60,104 nucleotides of DNA, from positions 1-60,104 of IMG/VR virus record IMGVR_UViG_3300042545_000094, one strand, 5' to 3'. Source of the stretch: a virus (taxonomy: Duplodnaviria > Caudoviricetes). The notes below the pieces were generated by a model that did no database searches, was not told where the DNA came from, and worked only from the letters and a program-made list of their open reading frames with translations. A program made the translations under genes and the position numbers. This document shows positions 1 through 60,104 of this stretch, in pieces; position 1 is the first letter of the stretch; the number at the start of each line of letters is the position of its first letter.

Positions 1-20
1 GTCATTTTTAAAAATGACGG

Positions 21-56
21 AAACAAAAAACCCCCGAGGATTTTCCCCGAGGGTTT
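21..56 (-). terminator. Rho-independent terminator downstream of ORF 590-90
   Basis: On the - strand, an imperfect GC-rich stem (CCCTCGGGG-AAAA-TCCTCGGGGG) is followed by TTTTTTGTTT. Confidence 0.65.
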
Positions 57-89
57 GGAAAGCGTGGGCGGATTCTCTCCGCCCTGTGG

Positions 90-590
90 TTAGCCTAAGT
101 TATCCACGTTACCGCCAAGAGCTTCAAAAATACTCATGAGGTCGCCCTTAAATTCGCTTGCCTTACAATCTTCGCCCGCTTCCTCAGCTTTAAAGATTCG
201 GTTGATGATTGTCTTAAGGTCAGCTTGCGTCTTATCATCTGTGGATAAATTGGCGGTTACTCGGTTGCCTGTTGTTTGGTATCCGCTTGCCTCTTTTACC
301 CGTTGCCAATATACATCTATCGTGCCACGTGAATAACCTGCCTCGGTCATACCTTTCACAAATTCATCACGCTCGAGTTTTAAACCCTGTCTATCCTTGC
401 CCTTCAACTCATACCAAGGCTTAATCAATTCACCCGTTGCACTCATTACGTTAAATGTAGCGTTGAGATTGTCAGCGTATGTTTTAATCTTTTCACCCGT
501 TGAGCTTGCCACTTTAATAAGTGCAACACGTGAGGCTACTAGGTTGCTATATACGTTGCCGTTTGTGATAACTACGTTTTGATTTTCCAT
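90..590 (-). CDS. Hypothetical early protein
   Basis: ORF track 90..611; the likelier start is MENQN at 590 (AAGGG upstream). It has a promoter-like element upstream and a terminator downstream. Confidence 0.75.
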   Translation of the reverse strand: MENQNVVITNGNVYSNLVASRVALIKVASSTGEKIKTYADNLNATFNVMSATGELIKPWYELKGKDRQGLKLERDEFVKGMTEAGYSRGTIDVYWQRVKEASGYQTTGNRVTANLSTDDKTQADLKTIINRIFKAEEAGEDCKASEFKGDLMSIFEALGGNVDNLG

Positions 591-604
591 CTGAATACCC
601 TTTT

Positions 605-737
605 CTAACATTGTTAGAACCCGTCTAACTCGGTATGAATATCATCTATTCATGGTTATAATGTATCACAAAATAGTGGTCTTAATCAAATCTTTTGGAA
701 ACAATAATTACCCCTACCCATAATCTAACAATGTTAG
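605..737. repeat. Two exact copies of palindrome CTAACAWTGTTAG (605-617, 725-737)
   Basis: Read directly: TTCTAACATTGTTAGAA at 603-619 and TCTAACAATGTTAGA at 724-738. Confidence 0.95.
660..689 (-). promoter_or_regulatory. Possible sigma70-type early promoter
   Basis: - strand TTGATT-N18-TACATT with TG upstream of the -10. It resembles the promoter at 59527-59555 and lies between two palindrome copies. Confidence 0.4.
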
Positions 738-1026
738 AAAACCAAGCGACACCCCACCCCCCAAAATACAATTTAGGGACTCCTATCACCCTATACTCTA
801 TAATTTGCACAAGAGATATAACGATTTAAAACTTTATAGTCCGCGGCTTTAACTTTATAGTACCCCCTCCCCCTACTTGAATACCCACAGACTTCCCAGT
901 TTCCCAGTTAAGCGAACCCACCCCCTATCAAAATATTTAAGGTTCCATACACGGGGGGTATATTTTTTTGATAAACTATTTTTACTTATGTGAGAGTAAG
1001 TAGTCTCCTGTGGTAGGGTGGACTTT

Positions 1027-3313: not shown

Positions 3314-5785
3314 ATGGCAATAGATAAAGGTTTATATCAAGCACCTCTAGGTATCGAAGAAGAAGCAATGGCTCAGGGCTTTGCTCCTCTGGAGATTGAG
3401 ATTGAGGACCCAGAATCGGTAACTATTGGTATTGATGGTAAGCCGATTTTAGAAATTGAAATGGAAGACGACGAAGAAGACGACTTCTCAGAAAACATCG
3501 CTGAAGAATTAGATGAAGGTGTCTTGCAGAAGATGGCAAGTGACCTAATTGAAGATTTTGATTCAGACGTAGGCGCCCGTAAAGATTGGATGCAAACATA
3601 CGTTGATGGCTTAGAGCTATTAGGTATGAAGATTGAAGATAGAGCTGAACCTTGGGAAGGCGCTTGTGGTGTGTATCACCCACTCCTATCTGAAGCATTA
3701 GTTAAGTTCCAAGCTGAGACCATGATGGAGACTTTCCCAGCAGCAGGTCCAGTCAAGACAGAAATTATTGGTAAAGAAACATCAGAAAAGAAAGATGCGG
3801 CCGTTCGGGTGGCTGCGGACATGAACTTCCAATTAACGGAAGTGATGAAAGAATACCGTCCTGAGCACGAGCGTATGTTGTGGGGCTTAGGTCTATCAGG
3901 TAATGCGTTTAAGAAAGTTTATTACGACCCAGGGCTAGAGCGTCAAGCTTCTATCTTCGTACCAGCAGAGGACGTCGTTGTTCCTTATGGCGCGTCTAAC
4001 TTAGAATCAGCTGAGCGTGTAACTCACGTGATGCGCAAGACTAAGAATGAGTTAATCAAGTTACAAGTTGCTGGCTTCTACCGTGATGTAGAACTAGGCG
4101 ACCCATCTAACTCTCTAGATGAGATTGAGAAGAAGATTGCGGAACAGATGGGCTTCAGAGCCACAACTGATGACCGCTATAAGTTATTAGAAATGCACGT
4201 TGACTTGGATATTCCAGGTTATGAGCACAAGGATGAGAACGGCGAACCTACAGGTATCGCGTTGCCATACGTTGTAACTATTGAGAAAGGTACCGGTACG
4301 GTACTAGCTATTCGCAGAAACTGGGAACCAGATGATGATACATATGCAAAGCGCAATCACTTCGTTCATTACCCGTATATCCCTGGTTTTGGCTTCTACG
4401 CGTTTGGCCTTATCCATCTTGTTGGTGCTTTTGCTAAGTCTGGCACTTCTATCCTTCGTCAGCTTGTCGACGCTGGTACATTATCTAATCTGCCAGGCGG
4501 TTTCAAAACTCGCGGCATGCGTATCAAAGGTGACGACACACCGATAAGCCCAGGTGAGTTCCGTGACGTGGATGTCCCATCAGGCACTATGCGTGACAAC
4601 ATCCTACCGTTGCCGTACAAAGAGCCAAGCCAGACATTGTTGCAGTTGATGAACCAGATTATTGATGAAGGTCGTCGCTTTGCGGCAGCTTCTGATATGA
4701 AGGTAGCTGATATGTCAGCTAATGCTCCAGTAGGTACAACATTAGCTATCTTGGAAAGAACGTTGAAAGTGATGAGTGCGGTTCAAGCGCGTATTCACTA
4801 TTCAATGAAGCAAGAATTAAAACTATTGAAGCGAATCATCGCTGATTACACACCACCGGACTATGACTATGAACCAGTTGAAGGCTCACGACTCGCTAAG
4901 AAATCTGACTACGATATGGTGGACGTCATCCCTGTATCTGACCCAAATGCAGCAACGATGGCTCAGAAAGTTGTTCAGTACCAAGCTGCCCTACAGCTTG
5001 CCCAAGGTGCTCCACAGTTATATGACTTACCGAAATTGCATCGTCAGATGTTAGAAGTTCTAGGTATTAAGAATTATCAAAAACTTGTTCCTACAGAAGA
5101 TGATAAGAAGCCACAGGACCCAATCACTGAGAACCAACAGGCTCTTATGATGAAACCTATCAAGGCTTTCTACTACCAAGACCATCAAGCTCATATCGCC
5201 GTACACATGGCAGCTATGCAAGACCCTAAGATTATGCAGTTGGTGGGTCAGTCTCCTATGGCACAGCAAATTGGTGCTGCGATGCAAGCGCATATTGCGG
5301 AACATCTAGGTTACGAATACAAGAAACAGATGGAAATGCGTATGGGTATCGAGCTTCCTCGTACAAACGAAGAGGAAGACGAAGGTATCCCAGAACAGAT
5401 GGAAGTCGAGATTTCTCAAAGAGCCGCTCAAGCAGCTCAACAAATGTTGCAACAGAATCAGCAGGAAGAGCAAGCCAAACAAAATGCTCAGGCTCAGCAA
5501 GACCCGCTTATTCAAATGCAACAGCAAGAACTACAAATTAAGCAAGCAGAATTGCAGCTTAAGCAACAGAAGTTACAAGTTGATGCGGCAGCTAAGGCTG
5601 ACCAACTCGACATCGAACGCGAACGTATTGCATCACAGAAGCAAATTGCTGGTATGCAAGTTGGCGCAAAAGTTGCCAAGGATAAAGCACAGTTGGCCTC
5701 TAAGGACCAGCTAGAAGGCTTGAAGATTGGCGCAGAAATCGCTCGTAACAGAGCGCAAATGAACCAACCGAAAGGGAATGAATGA
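3314..5785 (+). CDS. Portal protein with Gln-rich C-terminal coiled coil
   Basis: 823 aa, follows TerL; podovirus portal-like segments (GNAFKKVYYD, LRQLVDAGTLSNLP) and a long Q-rich tail like the P22 portal barrel. Confidence 0.85.
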   Translation: MAIDKGLYQAPLGIEEEAMAQGFAPLEIEIEDPESVTIGIDGKPILEIEMEDDEEDDFSENIAEELDEGVLQKMASDLIEDFDSDVGARKDWMQTYVDGLELLGMKIEDRAEPWEGACGVYHPLLSEALVKFQAETMMETFPAAGPVKTEIIGKETSEKKDAAVRVAADMNFQLTEVMKEYRPEHERMLWGLGLSGNAFKKVYYDPGLERQASIFVPAEDVVVPYGASNLESAERVTHVMRKTKNELIKLQVAGFYRDVELGDPSNSLDEIEKKIAEQMGFRATTDDRYKLLEMHVDLDIPGYEHKDENGEPTGIALPYVVTIEKGTGTVLAIRRNWEPDDDTYAKRNHFVHYPYIPGFGFYAFGLIHLVGAFAKSGTSILRQLVDAGTLSNLPGGFKTRGMRIKGDDTPISPGEFRDVDVPSGTMRDNILPLPYKEPSQTLLQLMNQIIDEGRRFAAASDMKVADMSANAPVGTTLAILERTLKVMSAVQARIHYSMKQELKLLKRIIADYTPPDYDYEPVEGSRLAKKSDYDMVDVIPVSDPNAATMAQKVVQYQAALQLAQGAPQLYDLPKLHRQMLEVLGIKNYQKLVPTEDDKKPQDPITENQQALMMKPIKAFYYQDHQAHIAVHMAAMQDPKIMQLVGQSPMAQQIGAAMQAHIAEHLGYEYKKQMEMRMGIELPRTNEEEDEGIPEQMEVEISQRAAQAAQQMLQQNQQEEQAKQNAQAQQDPLIQMQQQELQIKQAELQLKQQKLQVDAAAKADQLDIERERIASQKQIAGMQVGAKVAKDKAQLASKDQLEGLKIGAEIARNRAQMNQPKGNE

Positions 5786-5973
5786 CAGCACTTGAGGTTT
5801 TACTCAAACAATGTCGTGAGAAACAAGAACAGTTAGCGCAAGCCTTGGCTGGTGCGGCTGCAAAGGATTACGCGGAGTACCGCGCAATATGTGGGGAAAT
5901 TCGAGGTCTTTCTTACACAGAATCTTTAATCATTGACCTTGCAAAAAAACTGGAGAACTCTGATGACGATTGA
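5782..5973 (+). CDS. Small hypothetical protein
   Basis: 63-aa ORF with ATGA overlap to the portal gene. Confidence 0.75.
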   Translation: MTALEVLLKQCREKQEQLAQALAGAAAKDYAEYRAICGEIRGLSYTESLIIDLAKKLENSDDD

Positions 5974-52363: not shown

Positions 52364-52795
52364 TTAGATTTTTCCCGTAGCTTTGTATTGCTTTAGTTGT
52401 TCTTTCATAAGGCGAACCATCTCTTCGTCAAGTGTTTCACTACCTACGTGAAGGCTATTAGCAGTAAACGCACTTGCTGTGTTTGGCTGTAAAGTCACTA
52501 TCGGAGTGTTGTATGGGTGCTGATACGGCATTTGCCTTGGTGTTTCTACCACGTCATGCACTTCACCCGCAGTCAGTATGTGCTTCATAACTCGTTGGCT
52601 AAACAACTCACGATGTGCTTCTTTGAGTGCATCTTGGAAAGCCTTAAGCTCTTCTTCGGTCAGGCAGTGTCGCCAGTTACTCACTAGATTTTCCCATTTG
52701 TTACGGAGACCGCCTTCTCTAACATAGTCATCGGGTGCAAACTCCTCAGGGTTGCTCTGCATACGAGCGATAAGCATTTCTATTCCTCGGTTCAT
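52364..52795 (-). CDS. Hypothetical protein, paralog 3 of tandem triplet
   Basis: MNRGIEMLIARMQSNPEEF. Confidence 0.8.
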   Translation of the reverse strand: MNRGIEMLIARMQSNPEEFAPDDYVREGGLRNKWENLVSNWRHCLTEEELKAFQDALKEAHRELFSQRVMKHILTAGEVHDVVETPRQMPYQHPYNTPIVTLQPNTASAFTANSLHVGSETLDEEMVRLMKEQLKQYKATGKI

Positions 52796-53148
52796 TTTGT
52801 GTCCTTAAATACTGTTCTGCCTTTTGTTAAATACTTGAATGTATCTAGTGTGTGTTGTGTGTAAGCTTCTTTCATCGCCAAGCTCATACCTTGCTCAACT
52901 ATCTGTTGAATATCTATCAACTCTTTTCGTTTCTTTTCTTCTTTGTCAGCAAGCAACTGTTTAATTACTCGCTCAGTAAACTCTTGGCTACGTATCTCAC
53001 ATAACTTATCCCAAAAGGCTTCCTTATCTTCTCCAGTCATGTATTTCTTGTAGTGACTAAACAAGTGTTCCCACCTATCGCTGTCACGCAAGAACTCTTC
53101 GGGATGGCTTTCCATGCGAGCCAATAGAATCTCTATGCCCTTGTTCAT
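52792..53148 (-). CDS. Hypothetical protein, paralog 2 of tandem triplet
   Basis: MNKGIEILLARMESHPEEF. Confidence 0.8.
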   Translation of the reverse strand: MNKGIEILLARMESHPEEFLRDSDRWEHLFSHYKKYMTGEDKEAFWDKLCEIRSQEFTERVIKQLLADKEEKKRKELIDIQQIVEQGMSLAMKEAYTQHTLDTFKYLTKGRTVFKDTK

Positions 53149-53582
53149 GTATTAATCCCCATCTCATCTTTGTGTCTTATGTAATCGCCTAGCGTCATGC
53201 CAAGCTCTTTAGCTACTTTGATGTCCAACGCCGTGACTTTTGTAACACCGCCTTTTGCGCTTGCGCTTGGTCGTTGTGCTAAAACAGATGATAGTTCCAA
53301 GTCAGATTCTCTTAGCAGAGTATTCATAATCTGTTTAGTAAACTGGTCGCCCCTTACTTCCTGCATGGCACGCCATAGCTCGGCTACCTCAGCGTCGCTT
53401 AAGAAATCTAGGTAGTTGATGGGGTTCTCAGAACCCATAGCGTTAGCACGTGCTTCTACTTGCACTAGGACGTGTCGCCACTTCTCAGGGTATCTGCCTG
53501 TTATGTCAGGCATAAATTCTTCAGGGTTGCTCTTTACTCTTTCAAGTAATATCTGCACGCCTTTGTTCATTTCCTGTGTCAT
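53145..53582 (-). CDS. Hypothetical protein, paralog 1 of tandem triplet
   Basis: MNKGVQILLERVKSNPEEF. Confidence 0.8.
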   Translation of the reverse strand: MTQEMNKGVQILLERVKSNPEEFMPDITGRYPEKWRHVLVQVEARANAMGSENPINYLDFLSDAEVAELWRAMQEVRGDQFTKQIMNTLLRESDLELSSVLAQRPSASAKGGVTKVTALDIKVAKELGMTLGDYIRHKDEMGINT

Positions 53583-53874
53583 TGATTAGCTCCTTTAGGG
53601 TATCTTCTAACATTGTTAGATTCTCTTCGTTTATTACAATAGCCCTACCGCCCGCATCACGGATTGATTGCATTTCTTTCTCTTGTAACGCAGTAGGGGT
53701 ATTCTTACCAGCCTTGCATTCAATTCCTAAGAATCGTCCTCTAACGCAAGTGATGATGTCAGGCACGCCACTTCGCCCGAACCCATGGGTTGCGGGGAAA
53801 AAATAATAAACGTCATAAGCCTTCAAAAGCTTAACGCATTTATCTTTAACTTTCTTTTCGGGTGTAGATGCCAT
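53542..53874 (-). CDS. VRR-NUC nuclease (Holliday junction resolvase-like)
   Basis: PE..VK, GVPDI, IECKA, TALQ, AGG. Confidence 0.9.
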   Translation of the reverse strand: MASTPEKKVKDKCVKLLKAYDVYYFFPATHGFGRSGVPDIITCVRGRFLGIECKAGKNTPTALQEKEMQSIRDAGGRAIVINEENLTMLEDTLKELINDTGNEQRRADIT

Positions 53875-53880
53875 GTCCCT

Positions 53881-53908
53881 ATAATACAAGGGTCTTGGAC
53901 TTTGTCAA
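53881..53908 (-). promoter_or_regulatory. Sigma70 promoter
   Basis: TTGACA-N16-TATTAT; shares CTTGACAAAGTC with the promoter at 43008. Confidence 0.7.
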
Positions 53909-53924
53909 GGGCTTTTTTGAAATT

Positions 53925-54085
53925 ATTTTTAGGGGTTGGGTGGTGATGTAGATTGACCGCCACCCGTCGGTCTAGGAAAGGACTAGCTAGCTGAATAAAT
54001 TAGGGGGGACTAGCTAGTTGGCATTAAGCTTTTACATCTACAAGGCGACTAGGCTCATACCATATGTATTTACCCCCCTCAAAAC
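53925..54085 (-). ncRNA. Candidate multi-stem structured RNA or DNA element
   Basis: Nested inverted repeats: 53947-53953/54036-54042, 53955-53959/53968-53972, 53982-53991/54009-54018. Confidence 0.35.
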
Positions 54086-54086
54086 T

Positions 54087-54236
54087 TTAGAAACAAGTTG
54101 TATTACAGTTACCGCCGTAGCAACAAGTTGTGCAAGTAGTGAACTTGCCATTGATGTTATAAGTCTGTGTAGTGCATTGTGCGTAAACCAATGTAGCTAC
54201 CATAGAAAACCAAACACCTACGATAATCTTTTTCAT
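54087..54236 (-). CDS. Secreted cysteine-rich peptide (49 aa, not in ORF track)
   Basis: MKKIIVGVWFSMVATLVYA-QCTTQTYNINGKFTTCTTCCYGGNCNTTCF; GGAG RBS; signal peptide plus 6 Cys. Confidence 0.8.
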   Translation of the reverse strand: MKKIIVGVWFSMVATLVYAQCTTQTYNINGKFTTCTTCCYGGNCNTTCF

Positions 54237-54237
54237 T

Positions 54238-54726
54238 TTATTTCTCCAAAGTTGATACAAGTTTATTAAGATACCACTGGGCTTTCTTTAAATCCTTAAC
54301 AGCATCGCCCTTGTTGTTCGCACGACTAAGATACTTCAACGCCGTTAGGCGTAAGTGTCCTGTGAACTCTTCCTTCGTTGACTTAGCTTCCATGTAGTCA
54401 ATCGTTTCAATACCGCCAAACGTGTAATGCTCAGGGTGATTCACATCATCTTTAGCGTTGGTGGCAATCATTCTGTTTAGTGGCTTAGTAGTAGTAAACA
54501 TAGCGACTGTCGGCATACGCATTGGTGGGCGACCCCGTAACTTAGCATGCCCTTGGCTTGCCTTGAATGCCAAGTCAGATTCAGCTTTAGCTTTCTCCTT
54601 GGCTTTAGCTACAAGTGCGTATACATACTTGATGTTTAGCCCTAGCTTCTTAGCTATTTCTTCCCGCTTCCACGCAGGATTCTTTGCTAGTAGCTCTGCT
54701 ACCTTTTGCACATTAGTTTTCTTCAT
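54238..54726 (-). CDS. HTH plus DUF3310 (SaV-like) protein
   Basis: N-terminal EIAKKLGL; C-terminal D.VNHP.HY..GGIETID...KYL.R...K...DLKKA.WYL. Confidence 0.85.
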   Translation of the reverse strand: MKKTNVQKVAELLAKNPAWKREEIAKKLGLNIKYVYALVAKAKEKAKAESDLAFKASQGHAKLRGRPPMRMPTVAMFTTTKPLNRMIATNAKDDVNHPEHYTFGGIETIDYMEAKSTKEEFTGHLRLTALKYLSRANNKGDAVKDLKKAQWYLNKLVSTLEK

Positions 54727-54901
54727 TTTGCTTTTCCTCTTCTTGTTTAACAAACTGCTCTAAGGCTAATCTAATAGCCTTGCTCTTTGACGGATACTTG
54801 TTAAAAAACTTTACTATGTCTTTATCAACTCGCAAGCTAACATATACCATAGCGGGCTTTTTACCAAGACCCCGACCCTTTCGTTTCACTTCATCATTCA
54901 T
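54713..54901 (-). CDS. Ribbon-helix-helix/BrnA-like DNA-binding protein
   Basis: GRG.GKKP...VSLRVDKDIVKFF...IR.AL. Confidence 0.6.
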   Translation of the reverse strand: MNDEVKRKGRGLGKKPAMVYVSLRVDKDIVKFFNKYPSKSKAIRLALEQFVKQEEEKQNEEN

Positions 54902-55748
54902 GCTTTTCCTCACTTTGTGGTAATACAACAAAAGTATTCTCATCTACTCTGAAGCCAATGTTAGTAATCAACGTCTGATTCTCTACTAGCTTTAGCATAC
55001 CCACCCCTCTACGGATAAAGTCAGGTAGTTCTTCGCTACTCATAATACTCGGTTGACTTTGTCCAAGTGACACAGAATAATTCATTCCGTCAATAAATAC
55101 AAGATATGCTTTACCGCTAACTACCATGTCCCTAACTTTGTTAGTATGGCTAAGATTAGTCATAGCTTCGGGGAACAACTCAACACTTGTAGCAACAGGT
55201 GTATCTTTAGTCGCTGCCTTAAAAGCTTCTATATTTTCTAGTAGGAATAAGCGACCACGCTCTTCAACATTACGCCATACACCATTGAATGCGTAATACT
55301 TTTCCCTTGAGATGTTCTCAATGGTCTCTCGCATTTGTCGCTTGGCTTCAGTCAGTTTCTCGTCTAGGTTCTTAAGCCCAAAGAACTTTTCCACATGACG
55401 AACGGCTTTGTTCAAGTGAATAGTTTTCATACCCGACCCACGCTCACGCATATCTTGCACTCGGTGGTTGTTAATCCAAAAGCGTTTCCCCGAACGCATA
55501 TAGTCAATACCGATTTGACCTAGCACTTCATACTTATCGGTAATCTTCATACGCTCAATAGTCCAAGTGATGCCGTTCTCAGTATGTCGCTTACAGTTAT
55601 AGTCAGCCTCGAACTTCCACTCAGGGTGCTTTAACGCCAGCTCTTCTACCAATGGTGCTAGGAAAGTATCCACAACGGATTCAACTTTCCCACCCTTACC
55701 ATCGTCCTTCATCTCTAGTATTACGTTATCAAACTTAATCATATACAT
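54894..55748 (-). CDS. Hypothetical early protein
   Basis: 284-aa ORF; AGGA RBS. Confidence 0.75.
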   Translation of the reverse strand: MYMIKFDNVILEMKDDGKGGKVESVVDTFLAPLVEELALKHPEWKFEADYNCKRHTENGITWTIERMKITDKYEVLGQIGIDYMRSGKRFWINNHRVQDMRERGSGMKTIHLNKAVRHVEKFFGLKNLDEKLTEAKRQMRETIENISREKYYAFNGVWRNVEERGRLFLLENIEAFKAATKDTPVATSVELFPEAMTNLSHTNKVRDMVVSGKAYLVFIDGMNYSVSLGQSQPSIMSSEELPDFIRRGVGMLKLVENQTLITNIGFRVDENTFVVLPQSEEKHE

Positions 55749-55751
55749 TCC

Positions 55752-56609
55752 TTACCAGTTAAATTTATTAAGAATCTCATCTACCTTACTCTTTACATCT
55801 TGGCGAACGTCAGCGTGTTCTTTAATATCTTCAATGTCCACACCTAACATTGTTAGTTCTAGCGACCTACGTGCTTCCTCTAACTTAGGGTCTTTCGTAA
55901 TGTTCAAGTGCGTAAGTAGTCCACACAACTCGGTTGCATTAGTGATAAGCGAATCGTGATACCGCTTCTTGCTCTCAGTATCTTCCTCGTTCTCAGTTAG
56001 CTTTTCCGATAAGTGTGTCAGGGTCTTGTGTAGCTTGTCCCAGTTCTCACGCATAGCATCATTCAGCCTGTCGTTGAACGCACTCTCATACTTACTTGCT
56101 AGCTCTTGCATATCCATTTGTGGAATATCCAAACGGAAATCATTGCTCTCAGGTAGCGGACTAAACACTAGCTTGAACCCGAACTTATCTTTGAGGCTAT
56201 CTATACTAGGATAGTCATTAGCGTTGAACAACGAACCCAAGTGTAGCTTTGCATCAAGCACCAAGTCATCATAGCTATCAAAGAAATCTTGAATCATGGC
56301 GTTCATGTTGCGTTCAATCGTATTCATGTTCTGCTTATACTCCATGAACAATGACGTTGGTAGTAGTCTGCTACCCTTATCACTCCAAGGTAACGTGGTC
56401 TGATTGTGATACAGCCTAGCCCTAGCACCATAGTCAGCAATCTTCTTACGCTTGTTACTACCCGCCATCAAGTTCTTACGAACCTGTGCCGACCCACTAC
56501 TCGCACTATTACTCGCAAGCACGCTATCAGTCGCACCTTTGTCTAACTTGTTCGCAGTCCAAATACTGATGTTTAGTTCTGCCAATACTGCACTAGATGA
56601 AATACTCAT
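55752..56609 (-). CDS. Conserved early phage protein (DUF3150-like)
   Basis: L.IS.W...K.D, TLPW.D.G.RLLP, FNANDYP, LNIT.DP.L. Confidence 0.6.
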   Translation of the reverse strand: MSISSSAVLAELNISIWTANKLDKGATDSVLASNSASSGSAQVRKNLMAGSNKRKKIADYGARARLYHNQTTLPWSDKGSRLLPTSLFMEYKQNMNTIERNMNAMIQDFFDSYDDLVLDAKLHLGSLFNANDYPSIDSLKDKFGFKLVFSPLPESNDFRLDIPQMDMQELASKYESAFNDRLNDAMRENWDKLHKTLTHLSEKLTENEEDTESKKRYHDSLITNATELCGLLTHLNITKDPKLEEARRSLELTMLGVDIEDIKEHADVRQDVKSKVDEILNKFNW

Positions 56610-56773
56610 TATTCATTCTCCTTCAAAAAATTCCATACGCTTTGCTCAAAGTCTGAAAAGTCTTTGGCATCTACTTGGCAATAGTCCTTAGGATTTTCTA
56701 AGTCCATAACCATCAAACACTCACCAAACTTACCTAGTGAATACTCATTGTCATCATCTCTAACTGTTAGCAT
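56609..56773 (-). CDS. Small acidic hypothetical protein
   Basis: 54 aa MLTVRDDD...; TAATG overlap with the next gene. Confidence 0.5.
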   Translation of the reverse strand: MLTVRDDDNEYSLGKFGECLMVMDLENPKDYCQVDAKDFSDFEQSVWNFLKENE

Positions 56774-56777
56774 CTCA

Positions 56778-57029
56778 TTACTCCTTCGTTGGTTTACCTG
56801 CTAATTTCCACATTGCATATAGCTTGTCAGGTATTAACTCCAAGCTATGCGTCTTAATATCTTCTTGCGGATATACATAATGGGTTGTGTAAGAACCTTT
56901 ACCATCACCTACATCTTTCTGATACTCACTTTCGTAACACTCAGCCTCACCTAACAATGTTACTAACTGAATCGCTTTGTCATGGTCTAACACCCATTGC
57001 TTGTATCCAATAGTTATCTTTGCTTTCAT
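56778..57029 (-). CDS. Hypothetical protein
   Basis: MKAKITIGY...KLAGKP; GAGG RBS. Confidence 0.7.
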   Translation of the reverse strand: MKAKITIGYKQWVLDHDKAIQLVTLLGEAECYESEYQKDVGDGKGSYTTHYVYPQEDIKTHSLELIPDKLYAMWKLAGKPTKE

Positions 57030-57036
57030 ATATCCC

Positions 57037-58281
57037 TCAGTTCTTAATATGTATCGTCTTACCCATAGGTGCAAACGTGTTCGGATTCCGAACGACTGTC
57101 CATAGCATCGGTGCTTCCCACTCATTACCCCAATCTCCTATACACCCATCGGTCAGCATGATGACTGCCTCAGGTTTAATGTTGTGTTCCTTAAGATAGT
57201 GATGCACACACGTAGGGTCTGTGCCACCACCGCCCATTGGTTTAGTAGAACTAACAATGTTAGATACATCATTAGCGTCATACACTTCATGTCCTGCTAC
57301 TGCACTATCCCAATAGATAAGGTCTACTTTCTCAGGGTGAACCTCGTCAGCAATTCCTTTCACTTCTGAAAGAAACTCATTCAACTCATGCCCACCGATT
57401 GAACCCGACGTGTCAATGCCAATCACCAGATGCCCAACTCTTTCTCCTATTAGGCTAGGCATATACACACCAGTGCCTAGGTATCGTCTGTTCACCCTAC
57501 GCCAACTGCTTGCATCTTTTGCACTACACGTAGACTTCACAAACTCACGTAGTAGCTCACGCCAATCCACCTCAGGCTCAAGTAACTCTGTTAGCTCTCG
57601 GTTCAAACCACCCGCACCATTACCATTTACTTTGTTATTAGCAATCACACCTTGGCGTAGTGCTTGGTCAATCTCACGTTCCAATTCCTTCTTGGTCTCG
57701 GCATCAAGTTCCTTCGCACCTTCCCAGTCATGGTCATCAAAGCCACCGCCACCTTCACCATCACCTTCAAGCGGTTGCCCTTCGCCGAACATACCTTCGC
57801 CATTCTTCTTGTCCTCTTTGAGTAGGTCAAAGACTTGCTTAGCGTTCATGCCACGATACTTCTCATCAACTAGTCCTATTGCCTTACCTTGATGATGTGG
57901 CATTGCAATAACATTGTTAGATTTATCCATGTCTAGCAACATAAGGTTAATCACATAGTCGCAAGCCATGTTCGCCAACTGTTTATCCTCGTCCCACAAC
58001 TTCTTCCAAGTGAACAAGTGTCGGAAAGCCTTGTGCAATGTTTCATGTAGCACAACAAACGCAAGCTCTCTGTCATCAAGCATCTTGATAAACTCACGAC
58101 CATAAGTTTCGTCCCGACCATTCGTGCAAGCGGTTGGAATATCATCTGACACGCGGGTCTTACCCACAGTCATCAAGCCCGACCACAAGGCAAACTTAGG
58201 ATTCCTCATAATAGAAATCTTAACTTTACTAAGTCGCCGCTCTTCTTTGTCTTTGACTACTACGCTAGGTGTATCTAACAT
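57037..58281 (-). CDS. Metallopeptidase-like plus VWA domain protein (DUF2201-like)
   Basis: TACTNG, LHETLH (HExxH), N.ACDY.IN; MIDAS DTSGS, GGGT, LTDG. GAGG RBS before ATG 58281. Confidence 0.85.
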   Translation of the reverse strand: MLDTPSVVVKDKEERRLSKVKISIMRNPKFALWSGLMTVGKTRVSDDIPTACTNGRDETYGREFIKMLDDRELAFVVLHETLHKAFRHLFTWKKLWDEDKQLANMACDYVINLMLLDMDKSNNVIAMPHHQGKAIGLVDEKYRGMNAKQVFDLLKEDKKNGEGMFGEGQPLEGDGEGGGGFDDHDWEGAKELDAETKKELEREIDQALRQGVIANNKVNGNGAGGLNRELTELLEPEVDWRELLREFVKSTCSAKDASSWRRVNRRYLGTGVYMPSLIGERVGHLVIGIDTSGSIGGHELNEFLSEVKGIADEVHPEKVDLIYWDSAVAGHEVYDANDVSNIVSSTKPMGGGGTDPTCVHHYLKEHNIKPEAVIMLTDGCIGDWGNEWEAPMLWTVVRNPNTFAPMGKTIHIKN

Positions 58282-58301
58282 TGTTAGTTTCCTCGGTTGG
58301 A

Positions 58302-59369
58302 TTAAAGTAAATCTTCGTTCTTCTGAACCCAGTCGGCGAACTTCGCACAACTGAAAGCTATGTTCTGTTTAGTCGGGGACTTAGCCACGTTGATAGCAAA
58401 GCACGCTTGCCACTCAGGTTCAAACTTCTCCAAGTAAGTCATAAATGGGGTCATTGTTTCCTTGGTAATCTTAGCGATTGCACCGAACACAATAATTGCA
58501 CACGCACCTGCACTCTCAGGGACTTTGGCGTTCTTCGGGTCTTTCATCACAGATTCCCACGTAGGCAACTGGTCTGAATAGTCAATGTATGCTTGCATAT
58601 CACGTGATGCTGATTCGCCCACCGCACCCGTCATTGCACATATCAAGCTATCCGTATCAATCTGAGAGCGAACGCTAACAATGTTAGATACACGCTCAAG
58701 TGAACGAGGCGATACGAACGCAGTCTGCATCTTCTTTGGGTTGTAGATATACGGGTTGTCTGACTGTGCGGGGTCGGTATAACTCGCTAGTGCATGGGGG
58801 AACTGGCGAACCCACGCAATAACTTCGGGTGCGATATTGTTATTGATAGCCCACTCAATCCATTGGTCTGAATCAGGCTTGCTTACTCGTAGCGGGATAA
58901 TACGATTGCGACTATGTGCCTTCAACGTATCGCCCACTCCGTCTGTGCTTAGGTTGCCTGTTAGAAACACAATAGATTCGGGGTGAACTGACACATCACC
59001 CAAACGTGGGTTGGCTACTTCCAATAGTGGGTGCAACATATTCTTAACTGGCTCTGCACCTTTGGTGAACTCATCTAACATTGTTATGACTGGCTTGCCC
59101 GTATGCACTTTGAATCTACTGTTAGGGTAGTAGGCAGTAGTCTTGTTCTCATGGTTGATAACTGGCATGGCAATATCGCCCAAGTCCATGTTCGGCACGT
59201 CAATGTATGCCACTTCATGTTGGGGTAGCTTTGCGGATAGCGACTTAAGTAGAGATGATTTACCAATCCCTGGCTCACCTTCTAATAAGTAGCGGTTCAT
59301 AGGTGTGGCAAGAATAATCTCGCTCGCTTGTTTTAACGTAACTGTTTTACCAAAATTGATTTCACTCAT
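58302..59369 (-). CDS. MoxR-like AAA+ ATPase
   Basis: GEPGIGKS, MLDE, TGN, NR, SPRS. Confidence 0.85.
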   Translation of the reverse strand: MSEINFGKTVTLKQASEIILATPMNRYLLEGEPGIGKSSLLKSLSAKLPQHEVAYIDVPNMDLGDIAMPVINHENKTTAYYPNSRFKVHTGKPVITMLDEFTKGAEPVKNMLHPLLEVANPRLGDVSVHPESIVFLTGNLSTDGVGDTLKAHSRNRIIPLRVSKPDSDQWIEWAINNNIAPEVIAWVRQFPHALASYTDPAQSDNPYIYNPKKMQTAFVSPRSLERVSNIVSVRSQIDTDSLICAMTGAVGESASRDMQAYIDYSDQLPTWESVMKDPKNAKVPESAGACAIIVFGAIAKITKETMTPFMTYLEKFEPEWQACFAINVAKSPTKQNIAFSCAKFADWVQKNEDLL

Positions 59370-59526
59370 TTGCTTTTCCTTTTTAAAAACTTTTTGTTAA
59401 TTTGCATGGCAATCCTGCCACTTCTCGTTTACTCATATTGTGCTACCCCTAACAATGTTAGAACGGATTCTGAAATCCTTTAAGCGTTCCGAAATCCTGA
59501 AATCCTTAATTCTCAACATATACTAT

Positions 59527-59555
59527 ATTGTAACACAAATAATACTCATAGTCAA
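59527..59555 (-). promoter_or_regulatory. Strong sigma70 early promoter
   Basis: TTGACT-N17-TACAAT with extended -10 TG. Confidence 0.8.
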
Positions 59556-60031
59556 ATTCCTTCGTGGAACTTTTCCCAACCCGATTGGAAGAAACGTAGA
59601 TACTGGTCACGCTTCAACTCACCATCAGGTAGCTCAACTTCCTTGAAGCACTCTTCTCTGTGGATTCCCCAAAAGAGATTTCTAACAAAGTTAGGTAGCT
59701 CGGTTACTTGCCACTTGTGCATTTCAACACCATCTTCAGCCCAAAGAACATTGCCTTTTGAGCGTGCCAAAATAAGAAGAGCATGATAGTAACTGACGTG
59801 CTTCGTCTCCTCATTTGTGTCGTTGATGCAAGTAACGAACTGACGCAAAGTTTGCATGAAGGCTTGGTAGTGCGGACGTGATAAGTCCCCTTGGTGATTT
59901 AAAACACCATGACCATCTACACCAAATGCTTCTTTGTATTCATTACCACTGAACCTCACATTGCCTTGGTCGTTCACACGTAGCTTGATGACGTTCTCCA
60001 TGTAGGTCATGAATCCCTCGTAGCGTTTCAT
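59552..60031 (-). CDS. Hypothetical early protein
   Basis: 159-aa ORF in the early arm. Confidence 0.7.
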   Translation of the reverse strand: MKRYEGFMTYMENVIKLRVNDQGNVRFSGNEYKEAFGVDGHGVLNHQGDLSRPHYQAFMQTLRQFVTCINDTNEETKHVSYYHALLILARSKGNVLWAEDGVEMHKWQVTELPNFVRNLFWGIHREECFKEVELPDGELKRDQYLRFFQSGWEKFHEGI

Positions 60032-60104
60032 AACTTTGTTAGAACCCGTCCGATTGATATGGTGAATGATTGCTTTCGGTGCGTTCGCAGGTGTCCAATA
60101 CCCT

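Follow-up and report, generated by a model that had tools for sequence, protein, structure and literature searches.

The DNA analysed here, called the window, comprises 60,104 nt of a linear, about 95% complete record of an uncultured tailed phage. Its early genes include two core genes for a MoxR-type ATPase and a VWA/DUF2201 protein, through which relatives were retrieved, and a first early gene at the opposite end of the record (Table 1). The early arm is studded with the 13-bp palindrome CTAACAWTGTTAG; the array begins at a non-coding region beside the terminase genes. According to the preliminary description, the sites would form one block of ~7 kb if the window ends join. However, the ends do not join: Contig L005, 96% identical over 3340 bp, extends 2749 bp past window position 60104 and carries six further palindrome copies there, but does not reach window 1-737. 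Part of the early arm is absent from the window, since the gene at 59552-60103 is interrupted by the contig end. The absent sequence amounts to at least 2.75 kb.

Table 1. Palindrome copies, genes and signals of the early arm (positions in the window)
Feature	Position	Strand	Remarks
Intrinsic-terminator-like hairpin	28..56	-	13 pairs, then T run; directly 3' of first early gene
First early gene, 166 aa	90..590	-	proposed sequence-specific palindrome reader
Exact copy	605..617		15 nt 5' of first early gene ATG (590), adjoining its ribosome-binding site
Exact copy	725..737		head of early arm, 5' of likely promoter of first gene; preceded by G-rich box
Exact copy	53607..53619		3' end of small endonuclease gene; 25 nt ahead of next start codon (53582)
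1-mismatch copy	55132..55144		in 284-aa gene, nt 605; not conserved in relatives
Exact copy	55844..55856		in conserved 285-aa gene, nt 754
1-mismatch copy	56951..56963		in 115-aa gene; exact in L005
VWA/DUF2201 protein	57037..58281	-	core early gene
Exact copy	57251..57263		in VWA gene, nt 1088
1-mismatch copy	57908..57920		in VWA gene, nt 431; not conserved in relatives
Exact copy	58275..58287		between ATPase stop and VWA gene
MoxR-type ATPase	58302..59369	-	core early gene
Exact copy	58675..58687		in ATPase gene, nt 683; flanking codons variable among relatives
1-mismatch copy	59075..59087		in ATPase gene, nt 283, Walker B ITMLDE codons
Exact copy	59449..59461		ATPase gene 5'UTR; ~60-70 nt past start expected from promoter-like 59555-59527
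Sigma-70-like promoter	59527..59555	-	TTGACT-17-TACAAT with TG; consensus match alone
C-terminal part of ~318-aa early gene	59552..60103	-	interrupted by contig end
1-mismatch copy	59682..59694		in interrupted gene
2-mismatch copy	60030..60042		in interrupted gene; L005 equivalent with 1 mismatch

The window contains eight exact copies of CTAACAWTGTTAG, while none is expected: 100 of 100 dinucleotide shuffles were free of it. With up to two mismatches, 18 matches face 2.27 ± 1.40 expected ones (shuffle maximum 6). All exact and 1-mismatch copies lie inside 53607-60104 and 1-737, and none with 0 or 1 mismatch was found from 738 to 53606. Apart from the copy at 60030, the 2-mismatch matches (11880, 13375, 15644, 24838) are scattered over the late arm in approximately chance number. 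The same confinement is seen in three 100%-complete relatives with 10, 19 and 12 copies, each set forming one early block of 9-11 kb; the reversed pattern yielded no match in these three genomes. This means, the array is genuine and restricted to the early arm. In these points the preliminary description was right, including the coordinates of the eight exact copies, the five near-copies with one mismatch and the one at 60030 with two.

The centre of the L008 counterpart of the 725 copy is located ~73 nt 5' of a promoter-like TTGATT-18-TATAAT. In nearly all lineages, a palindrome copy precedes the ATPase gene, its sequence differing by lineage. The VWA gene has its ATG (58281-58279) at the centre of the 58275 copy, the ribosome-binding site being immediately 5'. 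The innermost copy, 53607, is followed 1.2 kb further on by the DNA polymerase gene. The near-copies 57908 and 55132 may have no function; a function is doubtful because they are not conserved among relatives. Four intragenic sites are kept in diverged relatives: 59075 in 9/10 (L027 has synonymous or conservative codons instead), 58675 in 9/11, 57251 in 11/11 and 55844 in 6/7. Conservation of the third codon position at these sites is 0.82-1.0 compared to gene means of 0.54-0.56. It reaches 1.0 at 57251, where seven of the relatives have the exact palindrome and four an altered outer base. As suggested before, selection at the intragenic sites acts on the nucleotides, not on the protein.

Palindrome arrays are widespread in this phage family. 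Counting palindromes with arms of at least 6 nt, 57 of 80 related viral contigs carry at least four perfect copies of one palindrome, with ~18 sequence types altogether, whereas shuffled controls never exceeded one copy (40/40); 16 of the 80 loci have fewer than three copies of any palindrome. Individual phages contain 6 to 25 perfect copies distributed over early genes. Each genome uses one type, and in one clade 40 of 42 loci have only one of four related palindromes. L059 carries the TTCATAT type although its core proteins are 95-99% identical to those of TTCCCAC-type phages: The palindromes are swapped at identical intergenic positions and the flanks are unchanged. Such in-place replacements span tracts of about 20-45 bp. 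Across lineages, homologous positions hold a site despite the changed site sequence. Different palindromes at identical positions in close relatives argue that a phage-encoded reader must exist. A host protein, listed previously among the candidate binders, is very unlikely, as the palindrome differs between phages with 95-99% identical cores and is uniform within each genome.

The short replacement tracts could also be attributed to small palindromes (tiny hairpin insertions or PeSL-like cassettes) that are mobile or recombine easily, have no reader and are copied for gene shuffling. The gene content of the early arm is indeed very variable, and PeSLs likewise precede early genes (PMC2839356). 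Nevertheless, this explanation is highly improbable: The conserved unit is a bare palindrome lacking a promoter and a G+C-rich stem-loop, homologous positions keep their site while its sequence changes, intragenic sites are under purifying selection and changes in the palindrome go along with changes in one segment of a protein (see below). Furthermore, in the only rearranged small gene that was checked (56609-56773), the breakpoints correspond to microhomologies at ribosome-binding site and ATG, not to palindromes.

Alternatively, a protein might, like MatP at matS or ParB at parS, coat or bridge the first-entering DNA for pull-in, protection or condensation, without controlling genes. In the CTAACA lineage, sites are spaced roughly 230-1500 bp apart over the whole arm irrespective of gene borders, and copies are dense near the end with the non-coding region where the array starts. 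On the other hand, MatP and ParB_N domains were not found in the window and the three complete relatives, and the proposed parallel to matS is reduced to a likeness in layout. Most other lineages have few sites (5-11) located at gene starts, and no link of the sites to packaging or ejection was found. Domain marking, the idea put forward in the preliminary description, is considered unlikely.

The most likely reader of the palindromes is the product of the first early gene, the first-named candidate in the preliminary description. It has 428 homologues but no match to a Pfam family, a PDB sequence or a known fold and no detectable similarity to known repressors. Its AF2 model is all-alpha (pLDDT 83) with a predicted helix pair (residues 64-83 and 88-101) that includes a conserved ..VYWQRVKEASGY helix; by inspection of the helix pattern, we propose that this pair is helix-turn-helix-like. 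The gene is probably a transcription unit of its own because the terminator-like hairpin is located directly behind it, an arrangement also present in L082, L028, L016 and L021.

Among the well-sampled gene families, the first gene has the largest identity gap between pairs with the same and with different palindrome types (72.6 vs 48.3%; 70 and 125 pairs, respectively, with core identity of at least 85%), although it evolves fast in general and same-type (70-100%) and some different-type (64-79%) identities overlap. The core of L096 is 95-99% identical to that of the TTCCCAC group, whereas its first gene reaches only 37-40% identity with this group but 61-70% with other TTCATAT phages. Eleven columns separate 11 TTCCCAC from 10 TTCATA[CT] proteins, and all of them map to residues 69-115 of 174, i.e. 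to one 47-residue two-helix segment. Columns 80, 83 and 88 are located on one face of the second helix in the AF2 model. This covariation yielded a prediction that was tested on 55 contigs retrieved through the window-type helix: 53 carry TAACA-N1/2-TGTTA arrays, even at whole-protein identities down to 34-43%, and the remaining two, whose helix is altered, have CTGACA-NN-TGTCAG palindromes. The first genes of the window type and the L008 type, which share the same palindrome, are only 16-24% identical. The proteins encoded by the ATPase, VWA, 285-aa, 284-aa and small endonuclease genes are 97-99% identical despite different palindromes. ATPase and VWA protein are thereby ruled out as specificity determinants. 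An RHH protein, also named earlier as a possible binder, does not track the palindrome type.

How might the palindromes act? Among 284 distinct sites, 55 have the start codon at their centre with a ribosome-binding site just 5', and 84 are located within 45 nt ahead of a ribosome-binding site and start codon. In total, 139/284 are associated with start regions. In the L037 lineage, an AGGA(G) ribosome-binding site forms the palindrome centre at four sites. Other sites are found in 5'UTRs about 30-60 nt behind sigma-70-like promoters. Together, this placement points to a control of gene expression. In all seven cases scored, a sigma-70-like -35/-10 pair 5' of the reader gene has a copy on either side, which favours DNA over RNA as the bound form. 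The RNA runs retrieved consist of assembled contigs and reveal no transcript ends. As previously supposed, the array is more than one simple promoter operator.

The main alternative, which we favour less, is that the sites are RNA operators. In this case, the first-gene protein would read a transcript hairpin and control translation initiation, cleavage/stability or termination. T4 RegA/RegB, MS2 coat protein on the replicase operator and lambda N on boxB are comparable cases. The location of the 139 start-region sites, between stop codon and ribosome-binding site or centred on ribosome-binding site or start codon, would suit such a mechanism, and 5'UTR sites 31-60 nt behind promoters are too far downstream for promoter occlusion. 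In addition, the length of the centre (the loop) varies within genomes: in 10 of 55, two spacings are represented by at least two copies each, and in L016/L017 by four each. On duplex DNA, such variation would be difficult to accommodate for a rigid dimer. The sense strand is asymmetric, a 3' flanking A being far more common than a 5' flanking T in several lineages (counted from the printed sites). RNA hairpins can be formed by all types (-2.6 to -12 kcal/mol), some copies make up the tip of a terminator hairpin that follows the first gene, and a weak similarity to ribosomal protein S15 was noted for the C-terminal domain of the model (Z 5-6, in the noise range for helical proteins). Against RNA operators, a wobble signature is absent from the sense strand (18 G.U-compatible vs 18 A.C single mismatches), and hairpin stability varies by a factor of five among lineages, being marginal in several of them including the window (-2.9 kcal/mol). 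Both arms are letter-exact with perfect dyad symmetry, whereas a hairpin requires pairing alone. Both orientations of the centre occur, which likewise speaks for DNA. The universally kept first copy is located 5' of the first early promoter-like site, and conserved copies are found deep within genes. Moreover, stoperators provide an example of sites located between genes that work at the DNA level (PMC6550527).

With stems of 5-8 bp around centres of 1-4 nt, the palindromes would also fit hairpin promoters in their geometry. Such promoters are used by the virion-borne RNA polymerase of phage N4. The ATPase-VWA gene pair is common to N4-like phages, which contain the nearest cultured homologues (20-31% identity), the window encodes a 2148-aa virion protein, and in several lineages a conserved GA(T/A)ACCAGT box is located 4-8 nt behind one to three of the copies. 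However, the 2148-aa protein matches only PLxRFG/DarB-like proteins, and according to PMC12753301 an RNA polymerase gene is missing from HTVC027P, a related phage. The palindrome centre is found in both orientations, many sites adjoin or include a ribosome-binding site or start codon, and canonical sigma-70-like promoters precede several of them. Hence, virion polymerase promoters are the least credible of the explanations considered.

We favour a DNA-binding protein of the Cro or stoperator-repressor kind that would regulate its own gene and obstruct host RNA polymerase throughout the early arm, a reading to which we assign a probability of about one half. The 90-590 protein would bind the palindromes as duplex DNA, presumably with two subunits per site, and contact them through the helix-turn-helix-like pair of helices. 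With one site 5' of its promoter region and another one by its ribosome-binding site, it might control its own synthesis; self-control is suggested because the gene appears to be a separate transcription unit with two sites upstream and a terminator behind. The accumulating reader could then fill at least 14 sites in the window phage and up to 25 in relatives, in 5'UTRs, between cistrons and inside genes throughout the early arm. Bound reader molecules would act as serial roadblocks to host RNA polymerase and turn down the early arm on schedule, resembling lambda Cro in timing and cluster A stoperators in layout. Both the sites and the protein are specific to a lineage and change in concert; for this reason, a phage of the same type that arrives later may be silenced by the system as well.

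Parallels to known systems are only partial. T4-type PeSL cassettes, too, are repeated stem-loop elements ahead of small early genes in a variable genome part, but they consist of sigma-70 promoters and G+C-rich terminator stem-loops in variable relative positions (PMC2839356), whereas here a bare, often A+T-rich palindrome is conserved that also occurs within genes and covaries with a protein. The matS sites bound by MatP in Escherichia coli are 13-bp 6-1-6 palindromes, dispersed, partly intragenic and marking one domain; the phage sites are associated with gene starts and 5'UTRs, a MatP domain was not found in the window and the three complete relatives, and the palindrome differs between close relatives, which argues for a phage-encoded reader. 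In KorB-OB of plasmid RK2 and ParB-parS, a global regulon relies on roughly a dozen copies of a perfect 13-bp palindrome whose central base is free. The palindrome design, the similar copy number and the location at promoters, far from promoters and inside genes are shared with the phage arrays, which differ by confinement to one arm and the lack of a partition function; ParB_N was not found in the window and the three complete relatives. Lambda Cro is a small helical first early product that acts on dyad-symmetric sites and turns down early transcription in lytic growth. The proposed reader resembles it in being a helical first early product with dyad sites and, probably, in the lytic turn-down. 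However, sequence or fold matches are absent, and Cro uses six operators at two promoters, compared to 6-25 sites here that are mostly off promoters and partly intragenic.

The cluster A mycobacteriophages L5, Bxb1 and Trixie have tens of near-identical 13-bp sites per genome, mostly outside promoters and including one at the regulator's own gene, and consensus and protein change together between lineages, resulting in specificity groups (PMC6550527, PMC9283540). All this applies to the present phages as well. Their sites between genes also provide a DNA-level precedent for an effect on elongation (PMC6550527; PMC9283540), although such a stoperator-like action is only proposed for the present phages. 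Stoperators are asymmetric, monomer-bound, point with transcription and occur in both arms, whereas the sites described here are perfect palindromes limited to the early arm. In the temperate cluster A phages, the protein maintains lysogeny; here, no integrase was found, and the proposed reader, encoded by the first early gene, has no recognizable similarity to any known repressor. Thus, a many-site layout like that of mycobacteriophage repressor systems is encountered in phages that look strictly lytic.

The 13-bp palindrome CTAACAWTGTTAG is present in eight exact copies in the window and absent from all of 100 dinucleotide-preserving shuffles. When up to two mismatches are allowed, 18 matches are found versus 2.27 ± 1.40 expected; 13 copies carry no or one mismatch. 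Fourteen of the 18 are located within 53607-60104 and 1-737. The remaining four, all with two mismatches, are dispersed in the late arm, roughly as many as expected by chance. The strand and gene layout (see table) places the array at the head of the leftward early/replication arm. The record stems from a viral metagenome, is classed as linear and has a completeness of ~95%. In the preliminary description, one block of sites was expected if the window ends join. They do not: The related IMG/VR locus L005, 96% identical over 3340 bp, continues 2749 bp beyond 60104, carries six further copies there and never reaches window 1-737. From the divergent non-coding region to the ATPase gene, more distant relatives have 4.9-6.6 kb, the window 1.4 kb.

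Using the VWA protein as query, 111 IMG/VR stretches were obtained, 80 of which were kept. The identical 13-mer is found in 23 of these 80 loci, with a maximum of 21 exact and four one-mismatch copies per 12 kb; L008 has up to 25 copies. Most other loci carry a different perfect palindrome at the same region. At least four perfect copies of one palindrome (arms of at least 6) are present in 57/80 loci and at least three in 64/80; shuffled loci never contained more than one (40/40). Fewer than three copies were counted in 16/80 loci, some of which are short or incomplete contigs. About 18 palindrome types can be distinguished, with arms of 5-8 bp and centres of 0-4 nt, among them GTAACA-N-, TAAACA-N1-3-, TTCCCAC-N-, TTCATAT-N-, GTTAGGG-N4-, GTTAGTG-N3- and TTCGGGC-N4-. 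The unit common to the copies is the palindrome of 13-18 bp alone, while the flanking sequences differ. Three complete relatives (63.3, 63.3 and 67.0 kb) contain 10, 19 and 12 copies of CTAACANTGTTAG, each set within a single 9-11 kb block, and none of the reversed pattern. Hence, the array is real and extends to relatives, and its confinement to the early arm recurs there.

Selection on the DNA instead of the protein had been proposed for the copies inside genes. Four intragenic sites were compared among relatives with ~45% divergence at the third codon positions of their genes. The sites at nt 283 and nt 683 of the ATPase gene are kept in 9/10 and 9/11 relatives, that at nt 1088 of the VWA gene in 11/11 and that at nt 754 of the 285-aa gene in 6/7. 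Within these sites, third-position conservation amounts to 0.82-1.0 versus gene means of 0.54-0.56, and neighbouring codons vary freely. Loss of a site (L027, L015/L018) left the amino acids intact or changed them conservatively, so that the protein does not need those codons. The check at synonymous positions thus agrees with the proposal. The near-copies at 57908 and 55132 of the window are not conserved in relatives.

A clade of 42 loci uses four related palindromes, TTCCCAC, TTCATAT, TTCATAC and TTCGTAC, each completed by -N- and the complement. Forty of the 42 loci have a single type. L059 is a TTCATAT phage which, by its core proteins, falls within the TTCCCAC phages: ATPase, VWA, 296-aa and 299-aa proteins, endonuclease and polymerase are 95-100% identical to theirs versus only 83-91% to those of other TTCATAT phages. 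In the DNA alignment, palindromes are swapped at identical intergenic positions and the flanks kept to within ~20-45 bp. Since palindromes are exchanged in place between phages with core proteins 95-100% identical, a host factor cannot explain the switching. The conserved core proteins compared for L059 are likewise excluded as determinants of specificity. Judged by these alignments, a phage-encoded reader must exist. ATPase, VWA, 285-aa and 284-aa proteins and the small endonuclease were rejected for this role, as phages with different palindromes share them at 97-99% identity.

The first early gene most likely encodes this reader, as the sequence comparisons suggest. Other lineages have position-equivalent genes of 160-210 aa which are beyond BLAST clustering and share a common architecture. 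In the 42-locus clade, first-gene proteins are 72.6% identical in same-type pairs versus 48.3% in different-type pairs (70 and 125 pairs, core identity at least 85%). This gap is the largest among well-sampled families; one other family has a larger gap, calculated from only 10 and 7 pairs. In L096, a TTCATAT phage with a core protein 95-99% identical to the TTCCCAC group, the first gene is only 37-40% identical to this group versus 61-70% to other TTCATAT phages. By contrast, the first genes of the TTCATAC phages L086 and L093 are 64-79% identical to TTCCCAC ones, which overlaps the range inside the TTCCCAC group (70-100%), so that whole-protein identity alone cannot decide. The L086 and L087 proteins are near-identical except in one segment. 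The alignment is decisive, as all 11 type-disjoint columns between 11 TTCCCAC and 10 TTCATA[CT] proteins fall within residues 69-115 of 174. The AlphaFold prediction for the window protein has seven helices (pLDDT 83); in it, the type-discriminating segment comprises helices 64-83 and 88-101, joined by a 4-residue turn, and the next loop; residues 80, 83 and 88 would lie on the same helical face.

L097 is mixed, with five sites of the TTCCCAC type and one of the TTCATAT type. It encodes a mosaic first-gene protein, in which a TTCCCAC-type helix segment is combined with the C-terminal half of L098/L099, shared with TTCATAC phages. This genome may represent a snapshot of a specificity switch. 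The mosaic obeys the rule, as the TTCCCAC-type segment is found with TTCCCAC sites.

The second helix (..VYWQRVKEASGY) hardly changes among 40 homologues of the window protein, in contrast to the variable remainder. If this helix sets specificity, phages that possess it are expected to use TAACA arms. IMG/VR was scanned with the helix pattern; of the 55 loci obtained, 53 carry TAACA-N1/2-TGTTA arrays at whole-protein identities to the window down to 34-43%. Two loci with a differing helix (IDKIWQRVKEASGK) have arrays of CTGACA-NN-TGTCAG. Of 45 loci with enough flank, 27 have a perfect copy in the 330 nt preceding the gene, and nine have two; a sigma-70-like -35/-10 pair separates the two copies in all seven cases scored. 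Both the covariation of the first-gene segment with the palindrome type and the outcome of the prediction favour this gene, already listed in the preliminary description among the candidate binders. Its family comprises 428 homologues, is widespread and lacks annotation. Pfam, PDB sequences and fold searches yielded no match, including no HTH family or fold: Foldseek of the model against PDB returned nothing at E ≤ 0.001, VIA-align in wide mode a best Z of 6.9, which is in the noise range for helical proteins, and profile searches against PDB sequences with the reader and three conserved unknown early proteins nothing below E = 0.06.

Coordinates of features in the window and in related IMG/VR loci (L-numbers)
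Feature	Location	Strand	Remarks
Exact palindrome copies	window 605, 725, 53607, 55844, 57251, 58275, 58675, 59449		
First early gene (candidate reader)	window 90-590	-	166 aa; site 15 nt before ATG, another ~135 nt upstream, 13-pair terminator behind
Minus-strand genes	window 38482-60104, 90-590	-	primase, SNF2 helicase, PD-(D/E)XK nuclease, DNA polymerase A, MoxR-type ATPase, VWA/DUF2201, many small unknowns
Plus-strand genes	window 1173-38216	+	terminase, portal, capsid, tail, 2148-aa PLxRFG/DarB-like protein
Type-disjoint positions	first-gene alignment 69, 71, 80, 83, 88, 103-107, 115		
Sigma-70-like promoters ahead of sites	L082: 7063, 7633; L008: 4105, 4988, 8645; window: 59555-59527		consensus match only
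G-rich box	window 740-780; L021, L016, L038, L039, L062, L069, L076, L078, L082, L047		in the window C-rich on + strand
Terminator hairpins with palindrome apex	L008: 3538-3556; L127: ~5540-5590; L128: ~5800-5850; L021: ~5470-5510		
Tandem units and iterons	L082: 6420-7100; also L080, L079, L055, L036, L046, L047, L076, L077, L081		
285-aa early protein	window 55752-56609		
54-aa gene	window 56609-56773; L005: 1173-1337		at another place in L005
Three tandem paralogues	window 52364-53582		145, 118, 143 aa

In most lineages, the copies occupy the gap between the upstream stop codon and the next ribosome-binding site. The palindrome centre coincides with AGGA(G) at four gene starts in the L037 lineage and with two ATGs, those of VWA and a small zinc-ribbon gene, in CTAACA lineages. 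Among 284 distinct CTAACA-N1/2 sites from 53 loci, 55 have the start codon in the centre and a ribosome-binding site just upstream, 84 are followed by ribosome-binding site and start within 45 nt, and 145 lie elsewhere, mainly intragenic, without adjoining a gene start. A minority of sites sit behind promoter-like sequences; several follow, at a distance of 31-60 nt, the start that near-consensus sigma-70-like promoters would give; these promoters are identified by consensus match alone. Every genome has its first copy ahead of the first early promoter-like site, within the divergent non-coding region. On the early strand, 10-40 nt ahead of the first palindrome, at least 11 lineages have a G-rich box, GGTGGGG(T). 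This box possibly serves the divergent control region as a signal for packaging, the terminus or regulation.

Behind the first gene, several genomes have a longer G+C-clamped hairpin with the palindrome at its tip and a T run after it. Such an intrinsic terminator with the recognition site as apex might render termination reader-dependent. Many lineages, though not the CTAACA ones, have 1-3 tandem units 3' of the first early gene and its terminator, each composed of the palindrome, 4-8 nt and a conserved GA(T/A)ACCAGT box. They are followed by 3-5 iterons of type AATGTTCNG and an A+T-rich stretch. From its sequence, the whole resembles a replication origin that has priming or regulatory transcripts. 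One L082 unit of ~110 nt ends in a terminator and could therefore be a small RNA. An Rfam search of seven loci found no family at gathering score.

The first-gene protein may read the sites as duplex DNA, to which we assign a probability of about one half. Reading at the RNA level is possible but less probable. It would account for the close link of the sites to translation starts and their location in 5'UTRs, but the mycobacteriophage precedent demonstrates that repressor sites can also lie between genes. The centre length varies within a genome (10/55 genomes have two spacings with at least two copies each, L016/L017 have 4 + 4, TAAACA lineages N1-N3), which is in line with RNA; yet, both arms are conserved to the letter and the dyad symmetry is perfect. 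Several lineages display a near-invariant A 3' of the palindrome on the sense strand, and some copies form the tip of terminator hairpins 3' of the first gene, both in line with RNA. On the other hand, the centre is found in both orientations (4:4 in the window), the first copy is outside the apparent early transcripts, and single-mismatch copies on the sense strand show no excess of G.U-compatible changes (18 versus 18 A.C). All types can fold into RNA hairpins (-2.6 to -12 kcal/mol), so hairpin stability decides nothing. A search of public runs found nine, three of them recorded as RNA. In four public runs, contig ends were not aligned with palindromes; all four hold assembled contigs, from which transcript starts, ends and strands are unreadable.

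We propose a many-site early-arm regulator with an orphan reader and quick specificity switching in a background that, as far as visible in the sequences, is lytic. A bolder and rather doubtful extension would be immunity types in virulent phages. The orphan first-gene protein and a dozen or more palindromic sites would constitute a self-recognition system that shuts the early arm and silences later-arriving kin. It would be driven to diversify so fast that every site of a genome is replaced in place between 95-99% identical relatives. Alternatively, the same protein would read RNA hairpins at translation starts, resulting in a phage-wide translational operator regulon with switchable specificity.

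Contigs 90-99% alike to window 53400-60104 occur in wastewater, freshwater and marine libraries (public sequencing runs X1, X2, X7, X8). This means that the group is not purely marine. No nucleotide match for the early arm was found among cultured phages, and the phage collection searched contained no cultured member of the group. ATPase and VWA proteins reach at best 20-31% identity there, in N4-like phages. The packaging genes are nearest to those of the pelagiphages HTVC023P/027P and a Gammaproteobacteria phage (TerL 54-58% identical). HTVC027P is described, in the available part of the source, as devoid of an RNA polymerase gene and with all early genes of unknown function (PMC12753301). 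The searchable papers on HTVC023P-type phages do not mention promoters, palindromes or hairpins, and one of them no stem-loops either. The very conserved 285-aa early protein (N-terminus ..SISSSAMLVELNISVWTARKLDK..; no Pfam or PDB match) adjoins the MoxR ATPase and VWA genes in 68/80 loci. Possibly, the three act as one machine; N4-like phages also have the ATPase-VWA pair. Three tandem paralogues of unassigned function separate the innermost palindrome from the DNA polymerase gene; relatives have one to three copies of them. The 54-aa gene is an insertion/deletion polymorphism: It is missing at this position in L005, L006 and one metatranscriptome contig, and its borders coincide with repeated ribosome-binding-site/ATG microhomology. 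The palindromes were also considered as shuffling breakpoints and rejected, as the breakpoints are elsewhere in the one rearranged small gene checked.

The analysis proposes a testable function for the first early gene and thus for an orphan family with 428 members, and it offers an explanation for a prominent sequence feature of a large uncultured phage group from marine, freshwater and wastewater habitats, with packaging genes similar to those of the abundant HTVC023P-type pelagiphages. If correct, many-site repressors would not be peculiar to temperate mycobacteriophages. Four palindromes one or two steps apart, mapped to ~10 residues, would provide a natural experiment in protein-site coevolution. 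Regardless of whether DNA or RNA is read, ~18 orthogonal protein-site pairs would be a ready regulator set.

Several known systems can be compared. The analogy to matS and the domain-marking mechanism of the preliminary description are not supported. MatP (PF06303) was found in 0/4 records (window and three complete relatives; the control matched E. coli), which excludes matS-MatP as family. Likewise, ParB/KorB with parS/OB is excluded, as ParB_N (PF02195) was found in 0/4 of these records (control 10/14 genomes). In PeSL cassettes, as far as the available part of the source describes them, the repeated unit is an intergenic sigma-70 promoter with a G+C-rich terminator stem-loop (PMC2839356). 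Here, only the palindrome is conserved, flanks differ, intragenic copies are kept, and 145/284 sites are not at a gene start. N4-type hairpin promoters are unlikely, since neither the 2148-aa protein nor any other protein had a polymerase-like match. Furthermore, they have one orientation and a start few bases downstream, whereas here the centre occurs in both orientations and a start codon or ribosome-binding site is inside or abuts many sites. Functional parallels are lambda Cro, KorB-OB and the conserved inverted repeats of phiC31; RegA/RegB and N-boxB are comparable cases for reading at the RNA level. Searching the literature for palindromic operators of lytic phages gave a single unrelated paper, and for phiC31 nothing useful.

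The closest known system is the repressor-stoperator system of cluster A mycobacteriophages. According to the available parts of two sources, these phages have 20-30 13-bp stoperators per genome, most of them not promoter-linked, that block elongation, and a lineage-specific site consensus is matched by the repressor specificity (PMC6550527; PMC9283540). Stoperators are asymmetric, oriented with transcription and monomer-bound, whereas the sites described here are perfect palindromes with the centre both ways and limited to the early arm. The first-gene protein family is unrecognisable as kin of the L5 gp71-type repressor and may be unrelated to it, although searches of this kind can miss distant kinship. 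Cluster A phages are temperate and their regulator maintains lysogeny; here, an integrase was not found, with PF00589 and PF00239 absent from the window and three complete relatives (controls positive in 14 and 12 of 14 genomes). As with stoperators, each genome carries many near-identical short sites, only a minority of them behind promoter-like sequences, and site sequence and putative regulator covary between lineages.
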